Below, one piece after another: positions 53,451 through 64,000 of a stretch of 64,000 bases of DNA. The notes beneath the pieces are model-generated. The model searched no databases and had not been told where the DNA came from. It saw only the letters and a list, made by a program, of their open reading frames with translations. The stretch comes from Cyanophora paradoxa CCMP329 (Eukaryota; Plantae; Glaucophyta). The position numbers and the translations under genes are program-made. Numbering within the stretch: position 1 is the stretch's first letter; each line of letters starts with the position of its first letter. The stretch spans positions 149,947-213,946 of the forward strand of contig QPMI01000088.1 in assembly GCA_004431415.1 (NCBI GenBank). Direction: 5' to 3'.

Positions 53451-54859
53451 GGTGACAGGATCAACGCCGATAACCAGGCGCTAGGCGCCGACGTGCGCAC
53501 TGACGGCCGGCGTTTGGATCGTCGACATAAACATGAGCCGCCTGTGGTGGCGCCGGGCGCGCGCAGCATGCGCAGTCAGCGTCAGGCCTCGGTGGGCCGC
53601 GGTTGGCGACGCACCGGTTCGAAAGGTACGCGAAGCCGTCGCTGCGGATCGGCTGCCTCACGCCTGCGAGCTCCGCCTGCGAGGCGCGGCGCTTAACGGA
53701 CTTCCAAAGCAGACGAAGCGCTCTCACCCGGAAGCTGCACGGGACCGAGAACACCAGCCCATCCGGGATGACTGGCGGCATGAGCGGCGCCCGGCGCTGC
53801 CGCCGCGCAGGAAGCTGTGGCCGCTGGATGAGGTCAAGGCTAAACAGGAGGCGCCGGCCGACGCTGGGGCGCGCAGAAAGAGCGCGCGAAGACTCCCGAA
53901 GAGAGCACGCTCCAATTCGAATTCGAGCCCAAAGCAATTGCGGCCGCGCCGCGCATCGTGCTCAAACCGAAACGCCGCTAGGGTGGGGGACGATGTTGTA
54001 GAGGGGTATGCATATTGGAGATCCGGAAAGTTTTGTTTTTTGGTGAATTCCGGGAAGTTGGCGAAAAGTTCGCCGAAAACTTACCAATACGCGTACGCAT
54101 ATGCATCGATATCATGATCATGCATATGGCGCGTTTCTCACCAAATTAAAGGCCCGGCCGCCGGGCAGCCTGCAACTTGGCTGCCGCAGTACTATAGCTA
54201 TTAGCTAGTGCAGCGGCACTGCAGCCTGCACCGTGGCACGCTGCAAGTTAGCCTGCAAGCTTTTAAGTTGGCTCAGGTTGGCTGCAACTTATATAACTGT
54301 GGCCGGTAATTCACCAAAAAAAAACTTATATAAATAAGCTTCCTGCAACTTAGCCTAGTAGGCTGCAAACTGCCGCGCCACAGCGGCCTACCGGACCACT
54401 GGCTATAGCTACCAGCTGCAGGTACGGTGGCTGCAGCCTGCAGGCTAGCGCTGCATGCATATGCACCTGCACCGTGCTGCACGGCCCTGCAGGCTGCAGC
54501 CTGCAGGCGGCTGGCGGCCTGCATCATCGAGCATCATGATCAGCATTGCGGCAGCCGCTGATCATGACTCATGAGCTGCAGGCTGTTCAACGGTTGCCCA
54601 GTTGCCAAGTTGCAGGCTTGCAGCCTGGCAGGCTTGCATGCACTGCACAGCTTATATAATTATAGGCCTGCGCATGCAGGCTCCGCCGCGCGCGGCGCCA
54701 GCTATAGCTAGCTATAGCCTAGTCGCTTTAGCTGCACAGCCTGGCAGCCTGCAGCTGGATCATGGAGCTGGTCCGGATCCCGCCTGGAGGTCGCAGCCAT
54801 AGCCAACTTGCAGGCTTACGTGTATACCAGCTGCATGCGCCTGCTGCAGCGGTGCATCG

Positions 54860-55142
54860 ACACATAGTAAAATGCGGAGTTTTAACCCTCGGCTTATCTT
54901 AATTGATTTTGTTGATATATCTCGTATATTCTATTTCAATCAATCGATAATCTGTGTATATCTTATCGAATATTCAATTATTTCGATTATTTTGTATTCT
55001 TTTCGATATTTTATCGTAAATTTCTCTTATTTTCCGATTAGTCTTACTGAGTCTATCGATAATCTGTATATATTTCCGAATAATATAACTGAATCTCAAT
55101 TAGATCTTGCCTCTGGTTAAAACTCCGCATTTTACTATGTGT
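54860..55142. repeat. 283-bp module bounded by a perfect 28-bp inverted repeat (element terminus or MITE)
   Basis: ACACATAGTAAAATGCGGAGTTTTAACC (54860-54887) and GGTTAAAACTCCGCATTTTACTATGTGT (55115-55142). Confidence 0.9.
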
Positions 55143-55396
55143 GATTGGTCTAAAAGTTAATTGATTTAATCGATATTATATTCATGTACTTTCTCGATTA
55201 AATTTAATTAAATTTAATTCATTTAATCGGAAATATATCGCTAAACTCGATTAAGATCCATAAAAGATTCATTTGTTAAATAAAACAAATCGATCTCTTA
55301 TTGAATTCAATCGTAATTATACATGAAACTTATATGTTTTTATCATTGTTTTATTGAGTCTAAGGGGGGACCCTTAGGAATTTAATGAATAATTGG

Positions 55397-55487
55397 GTGT
55401 CACAGGTGTCACAGGTCCATCCCAAACTTTTGGAAATTCACTCTTTATAGGAGAAACTTTGGGATAGACCTGTGACACCTGTGACAC
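55397..55487. repeat. 30-bp inverted repeat with tandem TGTCACAGG iterons
   Basis: GTGTCACAGGTGTCACAGGTCCATCCCAAA (55397-55426) vs TTTGGGATAGACCTGTGACACCTGTGACAC (55458-55487), 1 mismatch. Confidence 0.9.
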
Positions 55488-55923
55488 ATACCATATTCAG
55501 TAAGGACCTCATATATTGTTAAAATCTCAGTGTTAGTTGGTGTAGTTGATTCAAAAAATGCATTTTATACTCTGATTCATTGTTATTTCCTGTGAAATTT
55601 GAGTCAACTCAACCCACTTAGTCAACCCTTGCATTGAATTCGTAACAAAAATCCATATACTATTACTACTTTTACGATTAATATGAGTCAACCTAGAGTC
55701 CACTTTAATATAAATATTATATAATAGGGGGAATCTTGGGGAGATGCTTATAAACATATGAATTATTGAGCCTATGATACTTACATCGTCAGGCAGGCCT
55801 CGTTAAGAGGATTCCGAATCTGTTTTTGGTTTTGTCACATGATGAGTTGGTGAAGAGATACATGCATTTTAGTGTTTTGTATGTGGTTTAATGATATGAT
55901 GTCATAATGCATGGGTTTTCGTC

Positions 55924-56022
55924 AACAGTTAAATGAACAGTTAAGTGGACACCGTTTCACGATAAACGAGTAGACACTGCCTACTCCCAACAGGTGTCCA
56001 CTTAACTGTTCACTTAATTGTT
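55924..56022. repeat. 30-bp inverted repeat with tandem AACAGTTAA iterons
   Basis: AACAGTTAAATGAACAGTTAAGTGGACACC (55924-55953) vs GGTGTCCACTTAACTGTTCACTTAATTGTT (55993-56022), 2 mismatches. An extra half-site lies near 56111. Confidence 0.88.
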
Positions 56023-56523
56023 CGCAATTTGCTTCATTGTCTTTCAATAGCTTTCCCGCATATCTTGTTTTCAATTGTTGTTGCAGTACACTATTACAAT
56101 AGTTGTCTCGTTAACTGTTCACTTATCTGTTCGCTGCGGAAAAAAGACGATGACGGACGTGTTATGTTACGAAATGATGTCATAATGACGATGCATATGT
56201 ATATGATATATATGACACACCATCGAACTCGGGAGATCATGACGATCACGGCGATATATATATGTTATGTGTTTATGATACATCATTATTACATCATTAT
56301 GATGCATCATTCCGAAATCTCGAAAAATCGATAATCGGCATCTTCAAACGCTTGTATCTCATCACCAGATTATCAAATCGCAACGTTCTGCATATCGCTG
56401 TGAAGCGCTTGAAAAGATCTACAAGACAATGTGTATATCATATGCATATATGTATATCAGTCATACATATATTTGGAAAAACGAGTTTTCGGCTAGCAAA
56501 CTAGCTAGTTTTGGTCCTCTCTC

Positions 56524-57885
56524 TTAGTGTTCTTTGAGGTTTAGGGCTGTATATGACTCCTTAGTAGTCTGAAAGTCACTATACCATCTCTGGCTATTCA
56601 CTTCTGAAAGTTTCTGTGTGCCTGCTATGGTGAGCTTTTTGAGTTCCCTATTAACTTTCCCAGCCTTCTCCTTCCTAGCCTCTATCAAAGGCTTATCTGG
56701 GACTTCATTAGCAGCTTCTATGCCTTCTCTCCTTATAGCAGCATCAACCCTAGCTTCCTCTTTAGCTTGCTCTAAGGCATCCACTGTAGGGGTTTCTAGA
56801 TATTCAACTGCATTCACAGGCAACAGCTCATGGAATGCAAACCTGTTATCTATGATCTCACCAGTGGGACTCCTTAGCTTAAACTTAAAGCCTTCCCTAC
56901 TATCAACTGTGTAAACCATCCTAGACCAATTGTTACCCTGTTTAGCAAAGGGGTTCTTCTCAACTTTCACTCTAACAAACATGCCAGGCTGCATGGTATC
57001 AAGATAAGCTATTGATTTCTTGAATCTCTCATCTTCTAATCCCACTATATACCTGTAATGCTCCTCTGTAGTTTCACCTGGCTTCATCTTAGTAGCTGAG
57101 TGAACTGTATTATTGTAATTATACTCAATATCACCTAACACATCAAAGAATCTAGCTGTGTTATTAGCTATGCAGTAGTTTGTGATCAGTCTCTTAATCT
57201 GCTTGTTAAAGGCTTCAATTCGACCTTGGCTTCTATGGTCAGCAGTTCCACTCACTTGGTGTTCTATGAATTTACTAGATAAATACTCCTGGAATATTCG
57301 ATTTTGGAATTCACTCCCAGCATCTGATTGAACCTTTACTATTGGTCTTGCCACTCTCATCTCAAGCTGTTTAAATGCAGCCAATGTAGTGAGAGCTGAT
57401 TTATCTCTTATAGGTATAATATACCCAGTTCTCAGTGTTGATTCCATTGCAGTCATAAATGTATCATAGCCATTGTTTTGTTTCTTATAAGCTGGGAAAA
57501 AGAGCAAATCAATCACATAGGTATCAAGGGGTTGCCTAATTGGGACCATGGGATCTCTCTTCCTAGATATAGCAGGTGCATTGATCTGAACAACTTCTTG
57601 TTTTTTATAGAACTCTTGCAACTGCTTATAGGATTCATCTGGTAACTCAGCTCTCATAGCTTGAAGCCCTTTGTAACCAGTCCTCACATCATAGAATCTC
57701 TTGGCAATCTTGCTAGTTTCTTTCACTGCAATAGCAACTGGGATCTCTACTGGGACAAGCTCTTTCATCTCTGATTTTTTGACAATTCGAGATTCCCCCT
57801 TTTCCTCCTTTGGAACTGTGATGGGCAGTAGGTTACCTTGCAGTTGCTCAGTGGTTCTTCTAACTATTCTTCCAGTTGCTGGCAT
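56524..57885 (-). CDS. int: RVE-family (retroviral-like, Polinton c-integrase type) DDE integrase
   Basis: 453-aa intact ORF with D (YVIDLL), D (VQSDAGSEF) and E (QGRIEAFNKQIK), then YNNTVHSATKMKP and an SH3-like VRV...NWSRMVYTV. No chromodomain evident. Confidence 0.93.
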   Translation of the reverse strand: MPATGRIVRRTTEQLQGNLLPITVPKEEKGESRIVKKSEMKELVPVEIPVAIAVKETSKIAKRFYDVRTGYKGLQAMRAELPDESYKQLQEFYKKQEVVQINAPAISRKRDPMVPIRQPLDTYVIDLLFFPAYKKQNNGYDTFMTAMESTLRTGYIIPIRDKSALTTLAAFKQLEMRVARPIVKVQSDAGSEFQNRIFQEYLSSKFIEHQVSGTADHRSQGRIEAFNKQIKRLITNYCIANNTARFFDVLGDIEYNYNNTVHSATKMKPGETTEEHYRYIVGLEDERFKKSIAYLDTMQPGMFVRVKVEKNPFAKQGNNWSRMVYTVDSREGFKFKLRSPTGEIIDNRFAFHELLPVNAVEYLETPTVDALEQAKEEARVDAAIRREGIEAANEVPDKPLIEARKEKAGKVNRELKKLTIAGTQKLSEVNSQRWYSDFQTTKESYTALNLKEH

Positions 57886-57888
57886 CTC

Positions 57889-60800
57889 TTAATTAAAAGG
57901 AACAGAATTAATACCATCTGGTAAGATGTATCTCTTTGCATCAAAGCAGTTTAGGGCAACCCTTCTACTCACAGTGTCTATTATTGTGTGATCTGCCCTT
58001 CTTTTCTGCTTTGCAGTCACAGTCTTGCTGATACCTGCAAATAAACACTGCTTAAAATCATTAAATTGGAGTTCCTCAGTTGAAGTCCCAGAGAGCTTAC
58101 TCCTCTCAATCTCAGCAGTTCTGAAACTGTAAACTTTGGCTCTGAGACCCACATACTCCAATATAGCAGAACCTGGCATCTCATTTTTGTATTTACCTGG
58201 GGTCATTCTGTTAGATCCCCCTAGGTCCAAGGCATAAGATATATTCTCTATATCTTTTTGTAAGGTCTTAGATTCGATATATAGACAAAAGGAATCAGTA
58301 TCATGGAACAGTAATTTGGCTTTGGACCATTGGGACCTTACAGTATCATAGAAGAACTGGTAATTATGCAGTTTGGCTGCATCCAAAACATAGGCTCCAA
58401 TGGCAACTGGCTTATCTAGCTTCACATGTTTTGTGTAAAACTCAAAGGCAACTGCTCTTTCGTTTATGGGGCTTGTTGATTTCACCAATGGAGAGGCTGC
58501 ATATTTCATAAACAGTTTCTCACTGTTTGCAATCTTAACCACAGATCTACCTCTGCAAGATTCAATGCATTTCCCATAGATTGAGTTATTCATGAGCTTA
58601 TAGAAATCAGCCTCGAATTTATTCACTGCTTTCCTTCTCATCTCAGTGTTCAGCTCAATATAGGGTTTCATGACAGGAGCCACAGTAAATGATAGGACCC
58701 TGTGAACTTTCTTTAATTTCACACCTTTGTCCAACAGATACTGTAGAAGAGGCTCAGAAATCACATAGTTGGTCACAGAACCAAAGGTTGCAGTTAGCTT
58801 AGGGGTCTTATCAAGCTCTTCTCCTGAAAGATCTAATAGGCTCTTTTGATATTGTGATAATTCGGCATATTCTACTATTTTCTTGTTAATAATTAGGGGG
58901 AAATCACTGTGGTCTAGATATAGCCTAATTGGGTAATCCAGATCAACTTCCAGGAAACTGGATCTGTTATCTTGTGGGTTGAATTCGGTCTCCCATCTAA
59001 AATCACCAACTGGGATTGGCTGACTCAAACAGTAGCCATACAAGTTGTTAGCATCAAACAGCATAATGTGGGAGTTTTCACCATCAGCCTCAGCATACCT
59101 ACAAGGCATTGTTGCAAAGCCACCCCTGATTCCCCTCTCAACAAATTCGTATTGCTCTACATCACTTATAAGCTCTATTTTTGCCTTGGTGGTCCTAAGC
59201 ATAGCATCCCAAGATAACCCAGGTGCAGATACATAATGAACTGGGTCCAATCCATATACTGAGTGTGAAAGCCTTCTAAAAGCCTGGAATTTGTTCATTA
59301 ACTCATCTACATCAGCAGCTCCAAAATCCATGAAATTGCTTGCATCAATGAACTTGTAAAGACCCCATTGCAATGACAGGTATTGATCAAAGTTTTTCGA
59401 AAGGATTTCGATTCGTTTTTTATCTCCCAAGCCTGCTATTTTTCTGAAAATGAATGTCCCACAGTCATCCATTTGGTCAACAACAACTGCAACTTTGGTT
59501 TGCTTTGAGATTCTCCTATGGAGATTGCAGTTTCTGCATGCAGGAGCAATGTAATGACCTGTGTGGTGGTCATGATCTCTGCATTTAAAGTTTTCCTTGG
59601 TGAACCTCTCACTGCAAAGGTAACAGTGTTTGGTAGCTCTGTAAATTGCTTTCTGCTCATCTGTGAGTTCATTCATGGGAATATTGGTGAACAGGAAATC
59701 GATCAGTTCTCTTGCTTTGGATTCCAAGCATTCAAACAGAACTCCCATTGGATCCTGCCCCTCAAATCGAAAATCTTGAACATCTTCCCCAGTGACTACT
59801 CTCAGGTTGACTGCTGAGACTTCCCTTTTGGATTTCGATGCATCAATGGGGATGCTTCTATGTTCAATCTTGCAGTAAACCACAACAGGAAGCCACACAG
59901 TTTTCCTGAGGTTTTTCAGTCCAAACTCTATGGTGGTCTCAGGTTTAGGGGTGATTCCCTTTGAGAGTCTCCAATCAATGCATCTGTTTGAGTCCACATG
60001 AGCAGTGAGTTTAGCCTCAGACCTGAATCGAGATAAGCATGTATCACAGTAGTGTAACTTTTGATCCTTGGTTTTATCAAGGGCAACTCTGAGAAGTCTT
60101 GAAAGGGACATGATTGTAATATAGTGACCATTCCCTTCATCATCATGAATGAGCATGAGATTAATCTTTTGCTTTCTGCCTGGGTTGCTGGATTGATGCA
60201 GTGGATATATAACATCTCCATCCATTCCAAAGATGTTTATGCTAATGCCTGCATTTTGAGCTTCGAATTTATCAATGATTTCAGCATCACAAGGAACAGG
60301 GAATGGGATATTGTCGAAATTGAGAGCCAAAGGATTGTATGTGGTTGGTGAGTATTTCCATTTGCGATATTGTGTAAGCTCACTTCTCTTGTGGGAATTT
60401 ACATCTTTCCTATGGATCCATGCCAAAATGGCATTTTCGAAGCAAGAATCATCAATATTTCGAATATTCACTGTGGCTTTCTTAGCTGCAATTGATTCTG
60501 GTGTTTTAACATAGCAGCCACCAGTTGGGGCATAACTCATAATAGCAACTCTTAGCATTTCGATTCTCTCCAATCGATAGCTATCAACCACATTCATCTG
60601 CTCCTGACACATTTGGGCTGCTTTATTCAGCTCAGTTCGAATATTTCTCGATTTGGTTAATACAAAATAATCGCTGTAAATGTATTTCGATATCCAAACC
60701 TGTGGATTGCTGACTTTTACGAACTTGCAGATAAACGATAAGCGAACTTTGATTGCCCTGAATTGATCTAGACTGTCTCTTAAACGTTTTGGTAGAGAGG

Positions 60801-61134
60801 TTGCAATTCTATCTAAATATTCAATCACATCAACAACAACTTCCCTTCTGGCTCTGTAAGTGAGCCAGCGATATAATTCATTCATTGCTGTTCCATCTTC
60901 TGCCTCTGGTTCTATTTGCCTCAGGCGATCGAGTTCATCAAGAGTCTCAACTTTGTCATAGAGGTTATTGGCTTTTCTGGTTAATTTTGCTAAAGTGGGT
61001 CTGCCCCTTGAAATAAATCCGATTTCCCGGTCATATTCAGCCTCTGTAATTTCATGGGCTGCATACAGTGTTCCCAGTAATCCCATGAGTTCCCATTTCT
61101 TTTCTCTAATAAGTCTGTTGCTAATTCGGGGCAT
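57889..61134 (-). CDS. polB: Protein-primed family B DNA polymerase (Polinton type) with C2H2 finger and EndoVII-like insert; exonuclease degenerate
   Basis: 1081-aa intact ORF with NIRNIDDSCF, HYITIMSLSRL, CDTC..LTAH, CYLC..CRDHDHHTGHY..CRNCNL, YGLDPVHYVSAPGLSWDAM, GIRGG, FDANNLYG, KLMNNSIYGK, HDTDSF, GLRAKVY and FDAKRY. Confidence 0.95.
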   Translation of the reverse strand: MPRISNRLIREKKWELMGLLGTLYAAHEITEAEYDREIGFISRGRPTLAKLTRKANNLYDKVETLDELDRLRQIEPEAEDGTAMNELYRWLTYRARREVVVDVIEYLDRIATSLPKRLRDSLDQFRAIKVRLSFICKFVKVSNPQVWISKYIYSDYFVLTKSRNIRTELNKAAQMCQEQMNVVDSYRLERIEMLRVAIMSYAPTGGCYVKTPESIAAKKATVNIRNIDDSCFENAILAWIHRKDVNSHKRSELTQYRKWKYSPTTYNPLALNFDNIPFPVPCDAEIIDKFEAQNAGISINIFGMDGDVIYPLHQSSNPGRKQKINLMLIHDDEGNGHYITIMSLSRLLRVALDKTKDQKLHYCDTCLSRFRSEAKLTAHVDSNRCIDWRLSKGITPKPETTIEFGLKNLRKTVWLPVVVYCKIEHRSIPIDASKSKREVSAVNLRVVTGEDVQDFRFEGQDPMGVLFECLESKARELIDFLFTNIPMNELTDEQKAIYRATKHCYLCSERFTKENFKCRDHDHHTGHYIAPACRNCNLHRRISKQTKVAVVVDQMDDCGTFIFRKIAGLGDKKRIEILSKNFDQYLSLQWGLYKFIDASNFMDFGAADVDELMNKFQAFRRLSHSVYGLDPVHYVSAPGLSWDAMLRTTKAKIELISDVEQYEFVERGIRGGFATMPCRYAEADGENSHIMLFDANNLYGYCLSQPIPVGDFRWETEFNPQDNRSSFLEVDLDYPIRLYLDHSDFPLIINKKIVEYAELSQYQKSLLDLSGEELDKTPKLTATFGSVTNYVISEPLLQYLLDKGVKLKKVHRVLSFTVAPVMKPYIELNTEMRRKAVNKFEADFYKLMNNSIYGKCIESCRGRSVVKIANSEKLFMKYAASPLVKSTSPINERAVAFEFYTKHVKLDKPVAIGAYVLDAAKLHNYQFFYDTVRSQWSKAKLLFHDTDSFCLYIESKTLQKDIENISYALDLGGSNRMTPGKYKNEMPGSAILEYVGLRAKVYSFRTAEIERSKLSGTSTEELQFNDFKQCLFAGISKTVTAKQKRRADHTIIDTVSRRVALNCFDAKRYILPDGINSVPFN

Positions 61135-61190
61135 TGTTCCTAACTTGTTCCTACTAAAAGGGAGGTTTTAAATGGGGATATTCCGAACGC

Positions 61191-61241
61191 AAAAATTTGA
61201 TGAAAACTACTTAAAGAAATATCTTCTATATATATAAAAGG
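61191..61241 (+). promoter_or_regulatory. Element promoter motif, copy 1
   Basis: AAAAATTTGA...AAACTACTTAAAGAAATATCTTCTATATATATAAAAGG, immediately upstream of ATG 61245. Confidence 0.7.
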
Positions 61242-61244
61242 ACA

Positions 61245-62062
61245 ATGGCAGAGAACAAAGCAACATCTTCTCTGGAACGCTTGAAGGCTACATTAATGTT
61301 TCTTTGTGGATCTAATAACTTTAAAGACTTTGTCGCTTTGGGGAGAAGCAAATATATGAACTCTTTGTATTTGAAACTTGCAAAGTATGATTTGACTCAC
61401 GAAAGCCTTCCTCCACACTCAAACAGCTGTGCTTGCAAGCATCATATTGAAGAACAATGCTACATCTTGCATGTGGATAAAAGATTGTGGTTCTTGTTGG
61501 CAACTGCTGCATTAAACGATTTATGCCAAATGGTGCAAGGAGGGAAGATATATGCAAGAAATGCGGAGATCGACATAAAAACCGTAAGGATAATTTCTGC
61601 AATAAGTGCAGGATTATCATAAAGGAGGAGGAATTGGAAAGAAAAAAGCAAATCCAGAAAGAAGCAGAGGAGCGAAAGAAACAACTTGAATTAGAAGAAA
61701 GAGAGCGAAGGCAGAGAGAATTAGAACAAGAAAGAGCAAGGAATAGACATGCAGTTAATCTTTTCCTGATTTGGTGCAACCAGTTCATTCCAAAAATGGA
61801 TAATCTTCGCAGAGATGATATAGAGAGGTTCAGAGAGGGTAGATCTGCATTGATTGAAATGTATGCAGAACTCAGTACAACAAACACATTGGTTGCTGGG
61901 TTTCAGGTGCCTTTTCTTAAAAAAGATATCGCAAAAGGATTAGATTGCAGATGGAATAAGGACAAGAAAACATGGGAGACCTTGGAAATCGAACCATTTG
62001 TAGCATTGCTAGGTAAGCATTTCAAACTTATGTATATTGAGAGATTTGGACAGAGAGGTTAA
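61245..62062 (+). pseudogene. Cys-rich Zn-binding protein with coiled coil and C-terminal DUF5710-like domain (one frameshift near 61485)
   Basis: Frame 1 ...CACKHHIEEQCYI joins frame 2 VGNCCIKRF..CKKC..FCNKC, then an E/K/R coil and VPFLKKDIAKGLDCRWNKDKKTW. The frameshift may be a sequencing error. Confidence 0.65.
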
Positions 62063-62067
62063 AGAAC

Positions 62068-62102
62068 AAAAAATGATTTAAAGATTCTCTATATATATTA
62101 AG
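62068..62102 (+). promoter_or_regulatory. Element promoter motif, copy 2
   Basis: AAAAAATGATTTAAAGATTCTCTATATATATTAAG, upstream of ATG 62118. Confidence 0.65.
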
Positions 62103-62117
62103 AGAGACAGAGGAAAA

Positions 62118-62371
62118 ATGCCACTCAGTGAAGCCCAGAAGAGAGCTATGAAGAGGTACCAGCAAACTGAAAAAGGTAAGGCTCAAATCAAAAAGTTTAA
62201 CGAAAAAATAGCCACACAGCTAAGAGATCTATATCAAACCGATGATACCTATAGAGCCATGAAATAGCAAGTTCATGTCAGCGAAAGTATGCAGCCAATG
62301 CAGTCTGCTTTGTCAAATATTTGTATGATGTCCCTTACTCAAACAGAGGGAGAAAATCGAAACATGTCTAA
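62118..62371 (+). CDS. Small basic protein (stop at 62267 as written, or ~62371 if a 1-nt deletion is corrected)
   Basis: MPLSEAQKRAMKRYQQTEKGKAQIKK..., preceded by the shared promoter motif. Confidence 0.5.
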
Positions 62372-62506
62372 ATTATTTTTCCCAGCATATTACTAGGCTG
62401 GGGATATGCTGTTTATTCGCTGAAATACCAATTCATCCTTTTTGTATCTGAACCACTCGATATATCATGTGGATAAATTTCGTAGGGATACTTTCTCGAT
62501 TTCCAA

Positions 62507-62575
62507 CAAAAAATGATTGGGGGACCCAAACTACTTAAAGAAAAATCTTCTATATATATAAAGGGACCCCCAATC
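62507..62575 (+). promoter_or_regulatory. Element promoter motif, copy 3
   Basis: AAAAAATGA...AAACTACTTAAAGAAAAATCTTCTATATATATAAAGGG, upstream of ATG 62583. Confidence 0.7.
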
Positions 62576-62582
62576 GCTGAAA

Positions 62583-64000
62583 ATGAACGCCAAACAGACC
62601 AAGTTAATCAAATCGCTCGCTAACTGGCTTCGTTCTGATGAGGAACTCGCCAAAAACATGATTATCCCAGTGAAACCTGACAGCAAAGACCCAGTTTTCA
62701 AGCATAAGGGAGGTGCTTGGTCTGGGAAAAGTATGAGGAAGCGCTGGCAACTAATCAGTATGTATCTTGGGGCATTCTGCTCTCAGACAACATGATGGTT
62801 ATTGACTTTGATGATGAGGAGGACTTTGAGAAATTCCGAGATATGTTTCCTGATGACTTTGATGCCAATCAGCCCATGGCAAAAACTAAAAAAGGCTATC
62901 ATGTCTACTTCAAACGACCTGAGGAGTTCACTAAACTCAAAATTACCGATAAGGCTCCAGGCTTTAAAGGCTTTGAAAAGGTTGACCTGAAACAATCACT
63001 GGAACTGGAACTTCTGGATTAATTAATGTTTGTCCCAGTGTCAACAAGACCTGGGTAATTGCTCCATGGGATGATACCTGTGATTTCAATGAGCCTACTG
63101 ATGAGTTTAAAAGTGGATTGCAGAGAACTATATCTATAAGAGTGAGTATACTGCTAGTGCTAGCTCAATGATGAACTGGAAAAGAGTATTCTTAAAGAGC
63201 TGGTGGATATGGGCTTTATGCATCCAATATAATCTCTAAAACTGAACTTGGCTTTAGCTTTGATGCTGCTAATAAGGGACTCAATTGCCCATGCTGCAAT
63301 GGTTCCCATGAATCGAATAACTGGTATGTTATGAAAGCCAAAGGAGAAGATAAAAAGTATATTGTGTCCAGCTACAGTGGCAATTGCAAAAAACGATTTA
63401 TCTTCATTGGAATGCAATCTGATATCTTCAATCTCATTGATAAATCCGCTGGTTCTGGAGGCGCTCATTATGATGTCAGTCTTGTGTGCAAAGAGGTACT
63501 ACAACATACTTGGAGATACTCCAAAAAGTCATGGTTCAAACTCAATACTGATACTGGGATTTGGGAGCATGATGACACAAACCAAAGATTTACCTAGACA
63601 TAAGTTGCCTTGTTGTCCCTCAATACCTTGGCAGGGCTGTGCATTATAGCCAAAGAGCTTTGAAGGATGAAGAGAATAGAACAGCTTTCGAAGAGAAATC
63701 GAAAACATTAATTTCTATTGCAAAAATCTTAAACAATCAGGATATCGCAAATCCCTTCTGACTGATCTGCTCCTCTGCTGAATGATGATGAATTCTATGA
63801 AAAGATTGATACAGTTCCATATGTAATTGGATTCGATAATGGTGTATTTGATCTGACAACTATGACTTTCAGAAAGGGGAAACTGGAAGATATGGTGAGC
63901 AAGAGTGTGGGTTATGATTATACTGAGAATGTAGACCCAAGAAAGTAGACCATCTCAATCAGATTTATAGAGAGATTGTAGATGATCCAGCAGAGCGAAA
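62583..64000 (+). pseudogene. PrimPol (AEP superfamily) - Zn finger - D5_N primase-helicase, frameshifted, partial
   Basis: Reassembled frames give IIPVKPDSKDP, WGILL..VIDFDD, TKKGYHVYF, LINVCPS, CPCCNGSHESN and D5_N-like IGFDNGVFDLTTMTFRKGKLEDMVSKSVGYDY. There are several 1-nt frameshifts (~62722, ~62992, ~63110 and later). The helicase core is expected beyond 64000. Confidence 0.85.

Follow-up and report, generated by a model that had tools for sequence, protein, structure and literature searches.

A Polinton-type protein-primed DNA polymerase from Cyanophora paradoxa with a putatively inactivated exonuclease, a scaffold predicted to be retained and an adjacent primase-helicase gene

In this study, we report a protein-primed DNA polymerase (pPolB) of the Polinton type, P0001, whose exonuclease, as judged from its sequence and a predicted structure, is inactivated and lacks one excised subdomain, the domain itself not being lost. 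It is encoded in a window of 64,000 nucleotides from Cyanophora paradoxa CCMP329 (contig QPMI01000088.1, positions 149,947 to 213,946), which is the whole stretch of DNA that was analysed and to which all coordinates refer. Sequence comparison shows that the loss of the exonuclease site is lineage-wide, has taken place under continued purifying selection, and is not the decay of one copy. We consider it probable (roughly 60%) that P0001 acts as a replicase without exonuclease activity, which likely copies with errors and depends on the adjacent helicase for unwinding.

Genomic context

The G+C content of the window is about 70% up to position 54,860 and 38% from there to its end. Pfam searches with six host ORF fragments gave no informative match. 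The AT-rich part contains, from left to right, a terminal palindrome, the integrase and polymerase genes (both on the minus strand), several small ORFs, and a primase-helicase gene on the plus strand, and the element runs past the end of the window at 64000. The polymerase ORF (57889..61134, minus strand) encodes 1081 amino acids, matches PF03175 (E = 1.8e-13) and has the phi29 polymerase as its top structural match. Directly 3' of it lies an rve-type integrase gene of 453 amino acids (56524..57885, minus strand), in the same order as in relatives; the pairing of pPolB and rve integrase that belongs to Polinton/Maverick elements is present in the window, with an integrase match (PF00665, E = 2.4e-4) below the curated Pfam cut-off.

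Divergent from the polymerase is a Prim-Pol/D5-like primase-helicase gene (62583..64000, plus strand), which matches Prim-Pol (PF09250, E = 7.8e-4) and D5_N (PF08706, E = 4.1e-9) and leaves the window before the ATPase core. It carries several frameshifts in the window, and in the contigs of all four sequencing runs compared, seven listed places of this gene show a one-base difference from the window; the frameshifts are likely to be assembly errors or peculiar to the window copy.

The left end of the element is an imperfect palindrome (54860..55142, no strand assigned) located where the G+C content drops from 70 to 38%, with folding z values of about −10 and −9. Two more palindromes, at 55397-55487 and 55924-56022, lie further inside the non-coding left end, the one at the G+C boundary being the outermost (z about −10), and these could be a hairpin end or an origin. 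A 40-nt AT-rich repeat with the core TATATATA was found at 61204-61243, 62067-62106 and 62528-62567, each time just 5' of a plus-strand ORF, and is likely a promoter. Between 61226 and 61741 the contig depth was far below that over the polymerase gene, and a loose end at 61153 indicates that in some copies a different sequence lies upstream of it; this region is likely a variable accessory slot.

Domains of the polymerase

The uninterrupted ORF of 1081 amino acids given in the preliminary description was confirmed, and motifs A (DANNLYG, 59035-59055), B (KLMNNSIYGK, 58570-58599) and C (HDTDS, 58291-58305) are all present (58291..59055, minus strand). The domain order is terminal protein (TP), vOTU, Zn finger, dead exonuclease with an Endonuclease VII-type insert, and polymerase. 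In the predicted model, the TP-like domain (aa 77-202; 60529..60906, minus strand) has a little-finger/PAD fold and matches the Pol eta PAD with Z 9.2 and an rmsd of 2.6 over 106 aligned residues; this fold of Y-family polymerases is the one described for fused terminal proteins (PMC11161782). A shortened TP loop reads DSY where the family has GSGW, and Ser185 is a candidate for the linking residue. A vOTU-like cysteine protease follows at about aa 205-345 (60100..60522, minus strand), its limits and identity being taken from PMC11161782, and its C231 and H337 align with the conserved Cys and His of the family. The Endonuclease VII-type zinc/HNH insert (aa 492-538; 59521..59661, minus strand) matches PF02945 below the curated cut-off (E = 2.5e-4) and keeps the DHDH...N residues. 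Its identity between P0001 and its sister protein P0002 is 0.61, compared with a median of 0.43 in exonuclease-intact pairs (95th percentile 0.56), and a role in the resolution of branched DNA or in mismatch cutting is possible.

Loss of the exonuclease site

Three strings at the exonuclease positions of P0001 had been singled out beforehand, and all were found where they had been placed. At ExoI, VYCKIE (aa 419-424; 59863..59880, minus strand) has Lys422 in place of the catalytic Asp and retains Glu424. At ExoII, VVVDQMDDCG (aa 550-559; 59458..59487, minus strand) has Gln554 for the Asn and Gly559 for the catalytic Asp. The third, FIDASNFM (aa 595-602; 59329..59352, minus strand), is followed, after a single Asp, by FGAADVDEL (aa 604-612; 59299..59325, minus strand), which is the ExoIII helix with Phe604 replacing the Tyr and Asp608 retained. 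Between these two, at a deletion junction at 59325/59326 (feature 59299..59352), about 95 residues are gone, including the Kx2h motif (KGxYPY). In the register of the family, therefore, YADFE has become YCKIE, HNLxGYD has become DQMDDCG, YLKTDV has become FGAADV and KGxYPY is absent. Roughly 100 or more residues including ExoIII had been thought to be missing; the gap stands, at about 95 residues, and the ExoIII helix is retained.

The exonuclease site of phi29 requires Asp12, Glu14, Asp66, Asp169, Tyr165 and Lys143 (PMC4974454). When these numbers are mapped by motif, P0001 lacks the equivalents of Asp12 (ExoI Asp), Asp66 (ExoII Asp), Tyr165 (ExoIII Tyr) and Lys143 (Kx2h Lys) and keeps those of Glu14 (E424) and Asp169 (D608), that is, two of the four carboxylates. 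Among 270 aligned homologs, chosen by similarity and including the query, the ExoI Asp is kept in 251, the ExoII Asp in 264 and the Kx2h Lys in 267; the gap at ExoI in 15 rows of the alignment mostly concerned proteins shortened at the N-terminus. Between the FxDS Asp and the ExoIII Asp these proteins have a median span of 106 residues (5-95%: 103-121), compared with 12 in P0001, and the span is below 70 in only 5 of the 270. Since these residues and this span are near-universal, the loss of the motifs is not a matter of chance. The missing acidic residues were not found elsewhere in the alignment. Some residual exonuclease activity might be conceived through E424 and D608 together with the nearby acids D553, D556 and D557, given that half of the carboxylates and several neighbouring acids are there, but P0002 has none of these acids at those places, and the absent Kx2h Lys and ExoIII Tyr both set up catalysis in phi29 (PMC4974454), so that we regard this as very improbable.

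Two short loops that most relatives have in the polymerase domain (P0001 aa 680-690 and 960-980) are also missing from P0001 and P0002; these loops may have packed against the excised subdomain.

Retention of the scaffold

The AlphaFold2 model of P0001, built with 11 sequences, had a mean pLDDT of 80.6. In it, the strands and helices of the exonuclease are retained around the Endonuclease VII-type insert, with pLDDT values of mostly 76-92 in the scaffold. The model matched residues 4-575 of the phi29 polymerase (2pyj) with Z 20.9 and an rmsd of 3.1 over 479 aligned residues, the next-closest structural family being at Z 10.4, and the regions that would correspond to TPR1 and TPR2 are near normal length and lie within the aligned range. 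A sequence search of the PDB gave nothing meaningful. The exonuclease scaffolds of P0001 and P0002 have an identity of 0.39, compared with a median of 0.38 in 1892 exonuclease-intact pairs of similar polymerase identity. The identities of their TP and vOTU domains (0.42 and 0.52) were above the 95th percentile of intact pairs, which partly reflects close kinship. Because the fold is predicted to be retained and the identity of the scaffold is normal, we read the change as inactivation with excision of a subdomain, and not as loss of the domain. The exonuclease has not been reduced to a remnant as in mavirus-like enzymes: the scaffold is predicted to be complete save for the excised part, and it is conserved. 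The preliminary description had spoken of a clean loss of the exonuclease under continued selection; the loss of the proofreading site and the continued selection hold, while the scaffold of the fold is predicted to have stayed.

Copies and selection

The stretch was found, whole or in part, in 20 of 24 listed runs, with at least half of its words in 14. In four runs compared over 54000-64000, the depth of single contigs over the polymerase gene was about 90-100 times that of the flank in X1, X4 and X11, and that over the helicase gene about 35-65 times, about half of the former. Contig depth does not equal copy number; these values point to a many-copy element in a GC-rich eukaryotic genome. 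Since the depth falls between the polymerase and the helicase, some polymerase copies may have no neighbouring helicase.

Between 59200 and 59960, no indel or joint was listed in the four runs compared over this part, nor was any of the listed loose ends at the deletion junction, which contigs of X1, X6 and X11 bridge without indel. In the runs compared we saw neither another form of the junction nor a sister copy that retains the full domain. Among the 40 variants listed in this region, which are the best supported, 28 are synonymous, compared with an expected proportion of 0.21-0.29, giving a rough dN/dS of 0.11-0.17 (binomial p < 1e-7). Elsewhere, the best-supported variants listed were all synonymous in the polymerase (10 of 10) and in the integrase (5 of 5). 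Manual reading of a loose end at 59465 showed that a more diverged subfamily likewise has Gly at the position of the ExoII Asp. None of the runs that contain the stretch is recorded as RNA; run X16, guessed to be RNA, gave two diverged contigs and has no bearing on expression either way.

The sister protein P0002 is 46% identical to P0001 over its full length, has the identical junction and lacks all four exonuclease carboxylates at those positions. A search for shorter proteins gave no further close sister of P0002 among 120 listed of 438 matches, and against viral contigs P0002 matched only an exonuclease-intact relative. The predominance of synonymous variants, the single form of the junction and the deletion common to P0002 are the reasons for which we set aside decay of a copy. 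The several frameshifts of the helicase gene in the window would suit a decayed copy or an assembly artefact, but they fall in a gene where the run contigs are one base off the window at seven places, and for the polymerase the junction crossed in three runs, the synonymous variants and P0002 already refute such an explanation, to which we attach next to no weight.

A second exonuclease-dead family

A second family of exonuclease-dead enzymes consists of seven distinct proteins (P0176, P0218 and P0273-P0277). P0176 and P0218 have lost the catalytic residues and carry a deletion similar, but not identical, to that of P0001, and a search with P0218 gave five more proteins at 57-72% identity, all exonuclease-dead (P0271 is a near-duplicate of P0218). 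Identity is 42-76% within this family, compared with the 46% between P0001 and P0002. Modelling of P0218 gave a poor structure (mean pLDDT 54), which was left unused. We also excluded P0138, a sponge gene model with two gaps that may be an artefact of splicing. Motifs A (DCNSLYP) and B (KLRLNSLWGK) of P0176 are more diverged than those of other relatives, and an exonuclease-intact polymerase at L028:4984-8742 has TDTDN as motif C.

One member of the second family has a readable genome, the Sputnik-type virophage L006 (178-16133; 16.3 kb, 51% G+C). Its polymerase starts like P0275, and it also encodes an rve integrase, the major and minor capsid proteins of the Sputnik type and a D5-type primase-helicase of 900 amino acids that points away from the polymerase, a layout like that in the window. 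At another locus, L007, the helicase was not seen in the 502 bases present upstream. Viral contigs scanned with P0176, P0218, A3, P0276 and P0277 gave no relative.

Trees of the polymerase core disagree on whether the exonuclease was lost once. They are unrooted, contain no mavirus sequence and leave out 14 of the 78 rows selected, in which the anchor motif was absent. A quick tree splits the two exonuclease-dead groups, a quick tree under a mixture model was unresolved near P0128 and P0162, and a careful tree joins the groups with support 95/85. A constrained tree separating them was 9.68 log units better, with a p-AU of 0.74, which leaves the matter unsettled by the AU test. In the best-scoring tree the virophage group stands with the exonuclease-intact P0143 and P0135, away from P0001 and P0002, and a small insertion ahead of the RGG motif is present in the virophage group and P0143 and not in P0001 and P0002. 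Two origins are favoured. All nine exonuclease-dead tips are more distant from the intact tips (means 2.87-3.52) than is any of the 53 intact ones (maximum 2.81). In an unrooted tree such long branches fit faster evolution, or else early divergence or relaxed selection, and they support the idea of a mutator indirectly.

Pairing with a primase-helicase

A primase-helicase gene of probable SF3 type, divergent from the polymerase, was found in both readable exonuclease-dead loci and in none of 17 partial exonuclease-intact loci (Fisher p = 0.006, uncorrected for kinship). The Pfam screen of these 17 loci, from which the integrase and polymerase ORFs and overlapping frames were excluded, covered 31 long and 114 of 125 shorter ORFs and gave no D5, primase or SF3 family; for one intact locus, L029, the ORF used starts downstream of ExoI. 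D5_N was likewise absent from the two of the 17 that were searched at genome level. A Walker-A pattern was discounted as a test, as it missed the L006 helicase itself.

The window helicase showed no tblastn similarity to that of L006 at E 0.05. This fits an explanation in which the helicase would be a second, unrelated replicase or else a neighbour in tandem, the pairing a passing replacement of replicases, and the loss of the exonuclease a separate event, for instance through selection for a higher mutation rate. The fall in depth from polymerase to helicase and the different upstream sequence at 61153 point the same way, and multi-replicase genomes have been reported as turnover states: elements with both a pPolB and a D5 primase-helicase are read in 10.64898/2026.07.28.741278 and 10.64898/2026.10.13.758929 as transient states of replacement. 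That published reading and the lower contig depth over the helicase also weigh against a helicase-assisted replicase. But the identities within both exonuclease-dead groups indicate an old and hardly transient state, and the divergent layout recurs in the two readable loci but in no intact locus of the 17, so that we hold this explanation to be improbable.

Proposed function

In phi29, the exonuclease domain and TPR2 build a tunnel that opens the duplex (PMC4974454), and mutants of the metal ligands of the exonuclease lose strand displacement (PMC6351526). These data imply that an exonuclease-dead enzyme would need a helicase and would keep its scaffold, and a retained scaffold together with an adjacent helicase favours the error-prone, helicase-assisted replicase. 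The Polinton-type polymerase would still be the replicase of the element, with error-prone copying. By analogy with phi29, it would have no 3'-5' exonuclease activity, and its strand displacement would be weakened, because the metal ligands of the exonuclease are also needed there for unwinding; the dead scaffold might be retained as one wall of the template tunnel, together with TPR2. Unwinding in front of the polymerase would fall to the adjacent primase-helicase. Priming would take place on the fused TP domain, with release by the OTU protease, and the gain of the helicase may have been the step that permitted loss of the exonuclease.

Two further observations weigh against this replicase. 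Its partner has a primase domain of its own, which would be superfluous for a protein-primed replicase, and the shortened TP loop and the left-end palindrome make hairpin priming possible. In another explanation, close to the repurposing for end-filling or priming suggested in the preliminary description, P0001 now serves only as an initiator or end-maker, providing TP priming and finishing the ends for the integrase, while bulk copying is carried out by the primase-helicase together with a polymerase of its own or of the host; proofreading would be dispensable once other machinery does the copying. Primase-helicase fusions are a replicase class by themselves (10.64898/2026.06.19.733378), pPolB and DDE integrase are strongly linked in polisuviruses (10.64898/2026.10.13.758929), and palindromic ends have mostly been reported with replication genes other than pPolB (10.64898/2026.07.28.741278). 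The high identity of TP and vOTU between P0001 and P0002, with the share of kinship indicated above, would also agree with such a role. Against it, the whole phi29-like core has been kept at normal length, also between motifs B and C, the expected place of TPR2, and the long branches of both exonuclease-dead groups fit copying of the genome without proofreading. We consider such a demotion the main alternative, though rather unlikely.

Going beyond P0001, we propose tentatively, and with less than even odds, that proofreading was shut off at least twice in Polinton-type pPolBs after the gain of a primase-SF3 helicase, with the dead exonuclease kept for structural reasons, and that these enzymes are intermediates toward mavirus-type replicases.

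Comparison with known systems

P0001 is about 30-35% identical to many pPolBs of the Polinton/Maverick (adintovirus) type and shares with them the TP-like fold, the Cys and His of vOTU, the nuclease insert in the exonuclease, motifs A-C and the downstream integrase (PMC11161782; 10.1101/2023.08.22.554363). It differs from them in the lost catalytic residues, the excision of about 95 residues and the adjacent primase-helicase gene; according to a survey of such enzymes, ExoI-III are conserved throughout the taxon groups (10.1101/2023.08.22.554363). With the mavirus-type pPolB plus S3H, P0001 has in common that it lacks a proofreading site, keeps TP and vOTU, and is accompanied by an rve integrase and by a helicase, probably of SF3 type, encoded in a gene apart (PMC11161782; PMC13215967), and most likely it works like that enzyme, although it retains the scaffold and the Endonuclease VII-type insert within 1081 amino acids and its helicase is fused to a primase. 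The Tlr1-like pPolB-S1H fusions of PLVs and transpovirons likewise couple exonuclease loss to helicase gain (PMC11161782), but those enzymes have the exonuclease replaced and carry a fused SF1 helicase, whereas in P0001 the fold is predicted to be kept and the putative SF3 helicase is separate. Mutants of the phi29 exonuclease site have lost the same catalytic positions (PMC4974454; PMC6351526); phi29 works independently of a helicase, and its terminal protein is separate and unrelated, while P0001 is a natural exonuclease-dead form under selection. Finally, L006 resembles the rumen-type hybrid virophages (PMC6905037) in combining a Sputnik-type capsid with a polinton-type polymerase; the word "exonuclease" does not occur in the main texts of PMC4409740 and PMC6905037, which deal with those hybrids.

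The loss of the exonuclease along with the gain of a helicase has already been published for mavirus and for the Tlr1-like enzymes and PLVs (PMC11161782; PMC13215967). No description of a Polinton-type pPolB that is exonuclease-dead and retains the scaffold was found in the main texts of open-access papers that were searched, among them PMC12721341, PMC10120064, PMC6905037, PMC9952930 and PMC8502044 as well as 10.64898/2026.06.19.733378, 10.64898/2026.10.13.758929 and 10.64898/2026.07.28.741278.

Krupovic and colleagues proposed that exonuclease loss and helicase gain are compensatory, on the basis of mavirus and Tlr1-like enzymes, which are end states with little of the domain left. The proteins described here appear to keep the fold and to have lost only the catalytic parts, probably in two lineages, each beside a different primase-helicase. 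Such fold-retaining, exonuclease-dead enzymes make the compensatory proposal directly testable, with close exonuclease-intact relatives as controls. If the tentative wider reading is true, they would be the first natural test of the idea that phi29-type enzymes keep their exonuclease mainly to displace strands and lose it when a helicase takes over. The proposal also predicts a lineage of DNA viruses with a raised mutation rate, present at high copy number in a eukaryotic genome, and the polymerase would then be a mutator.
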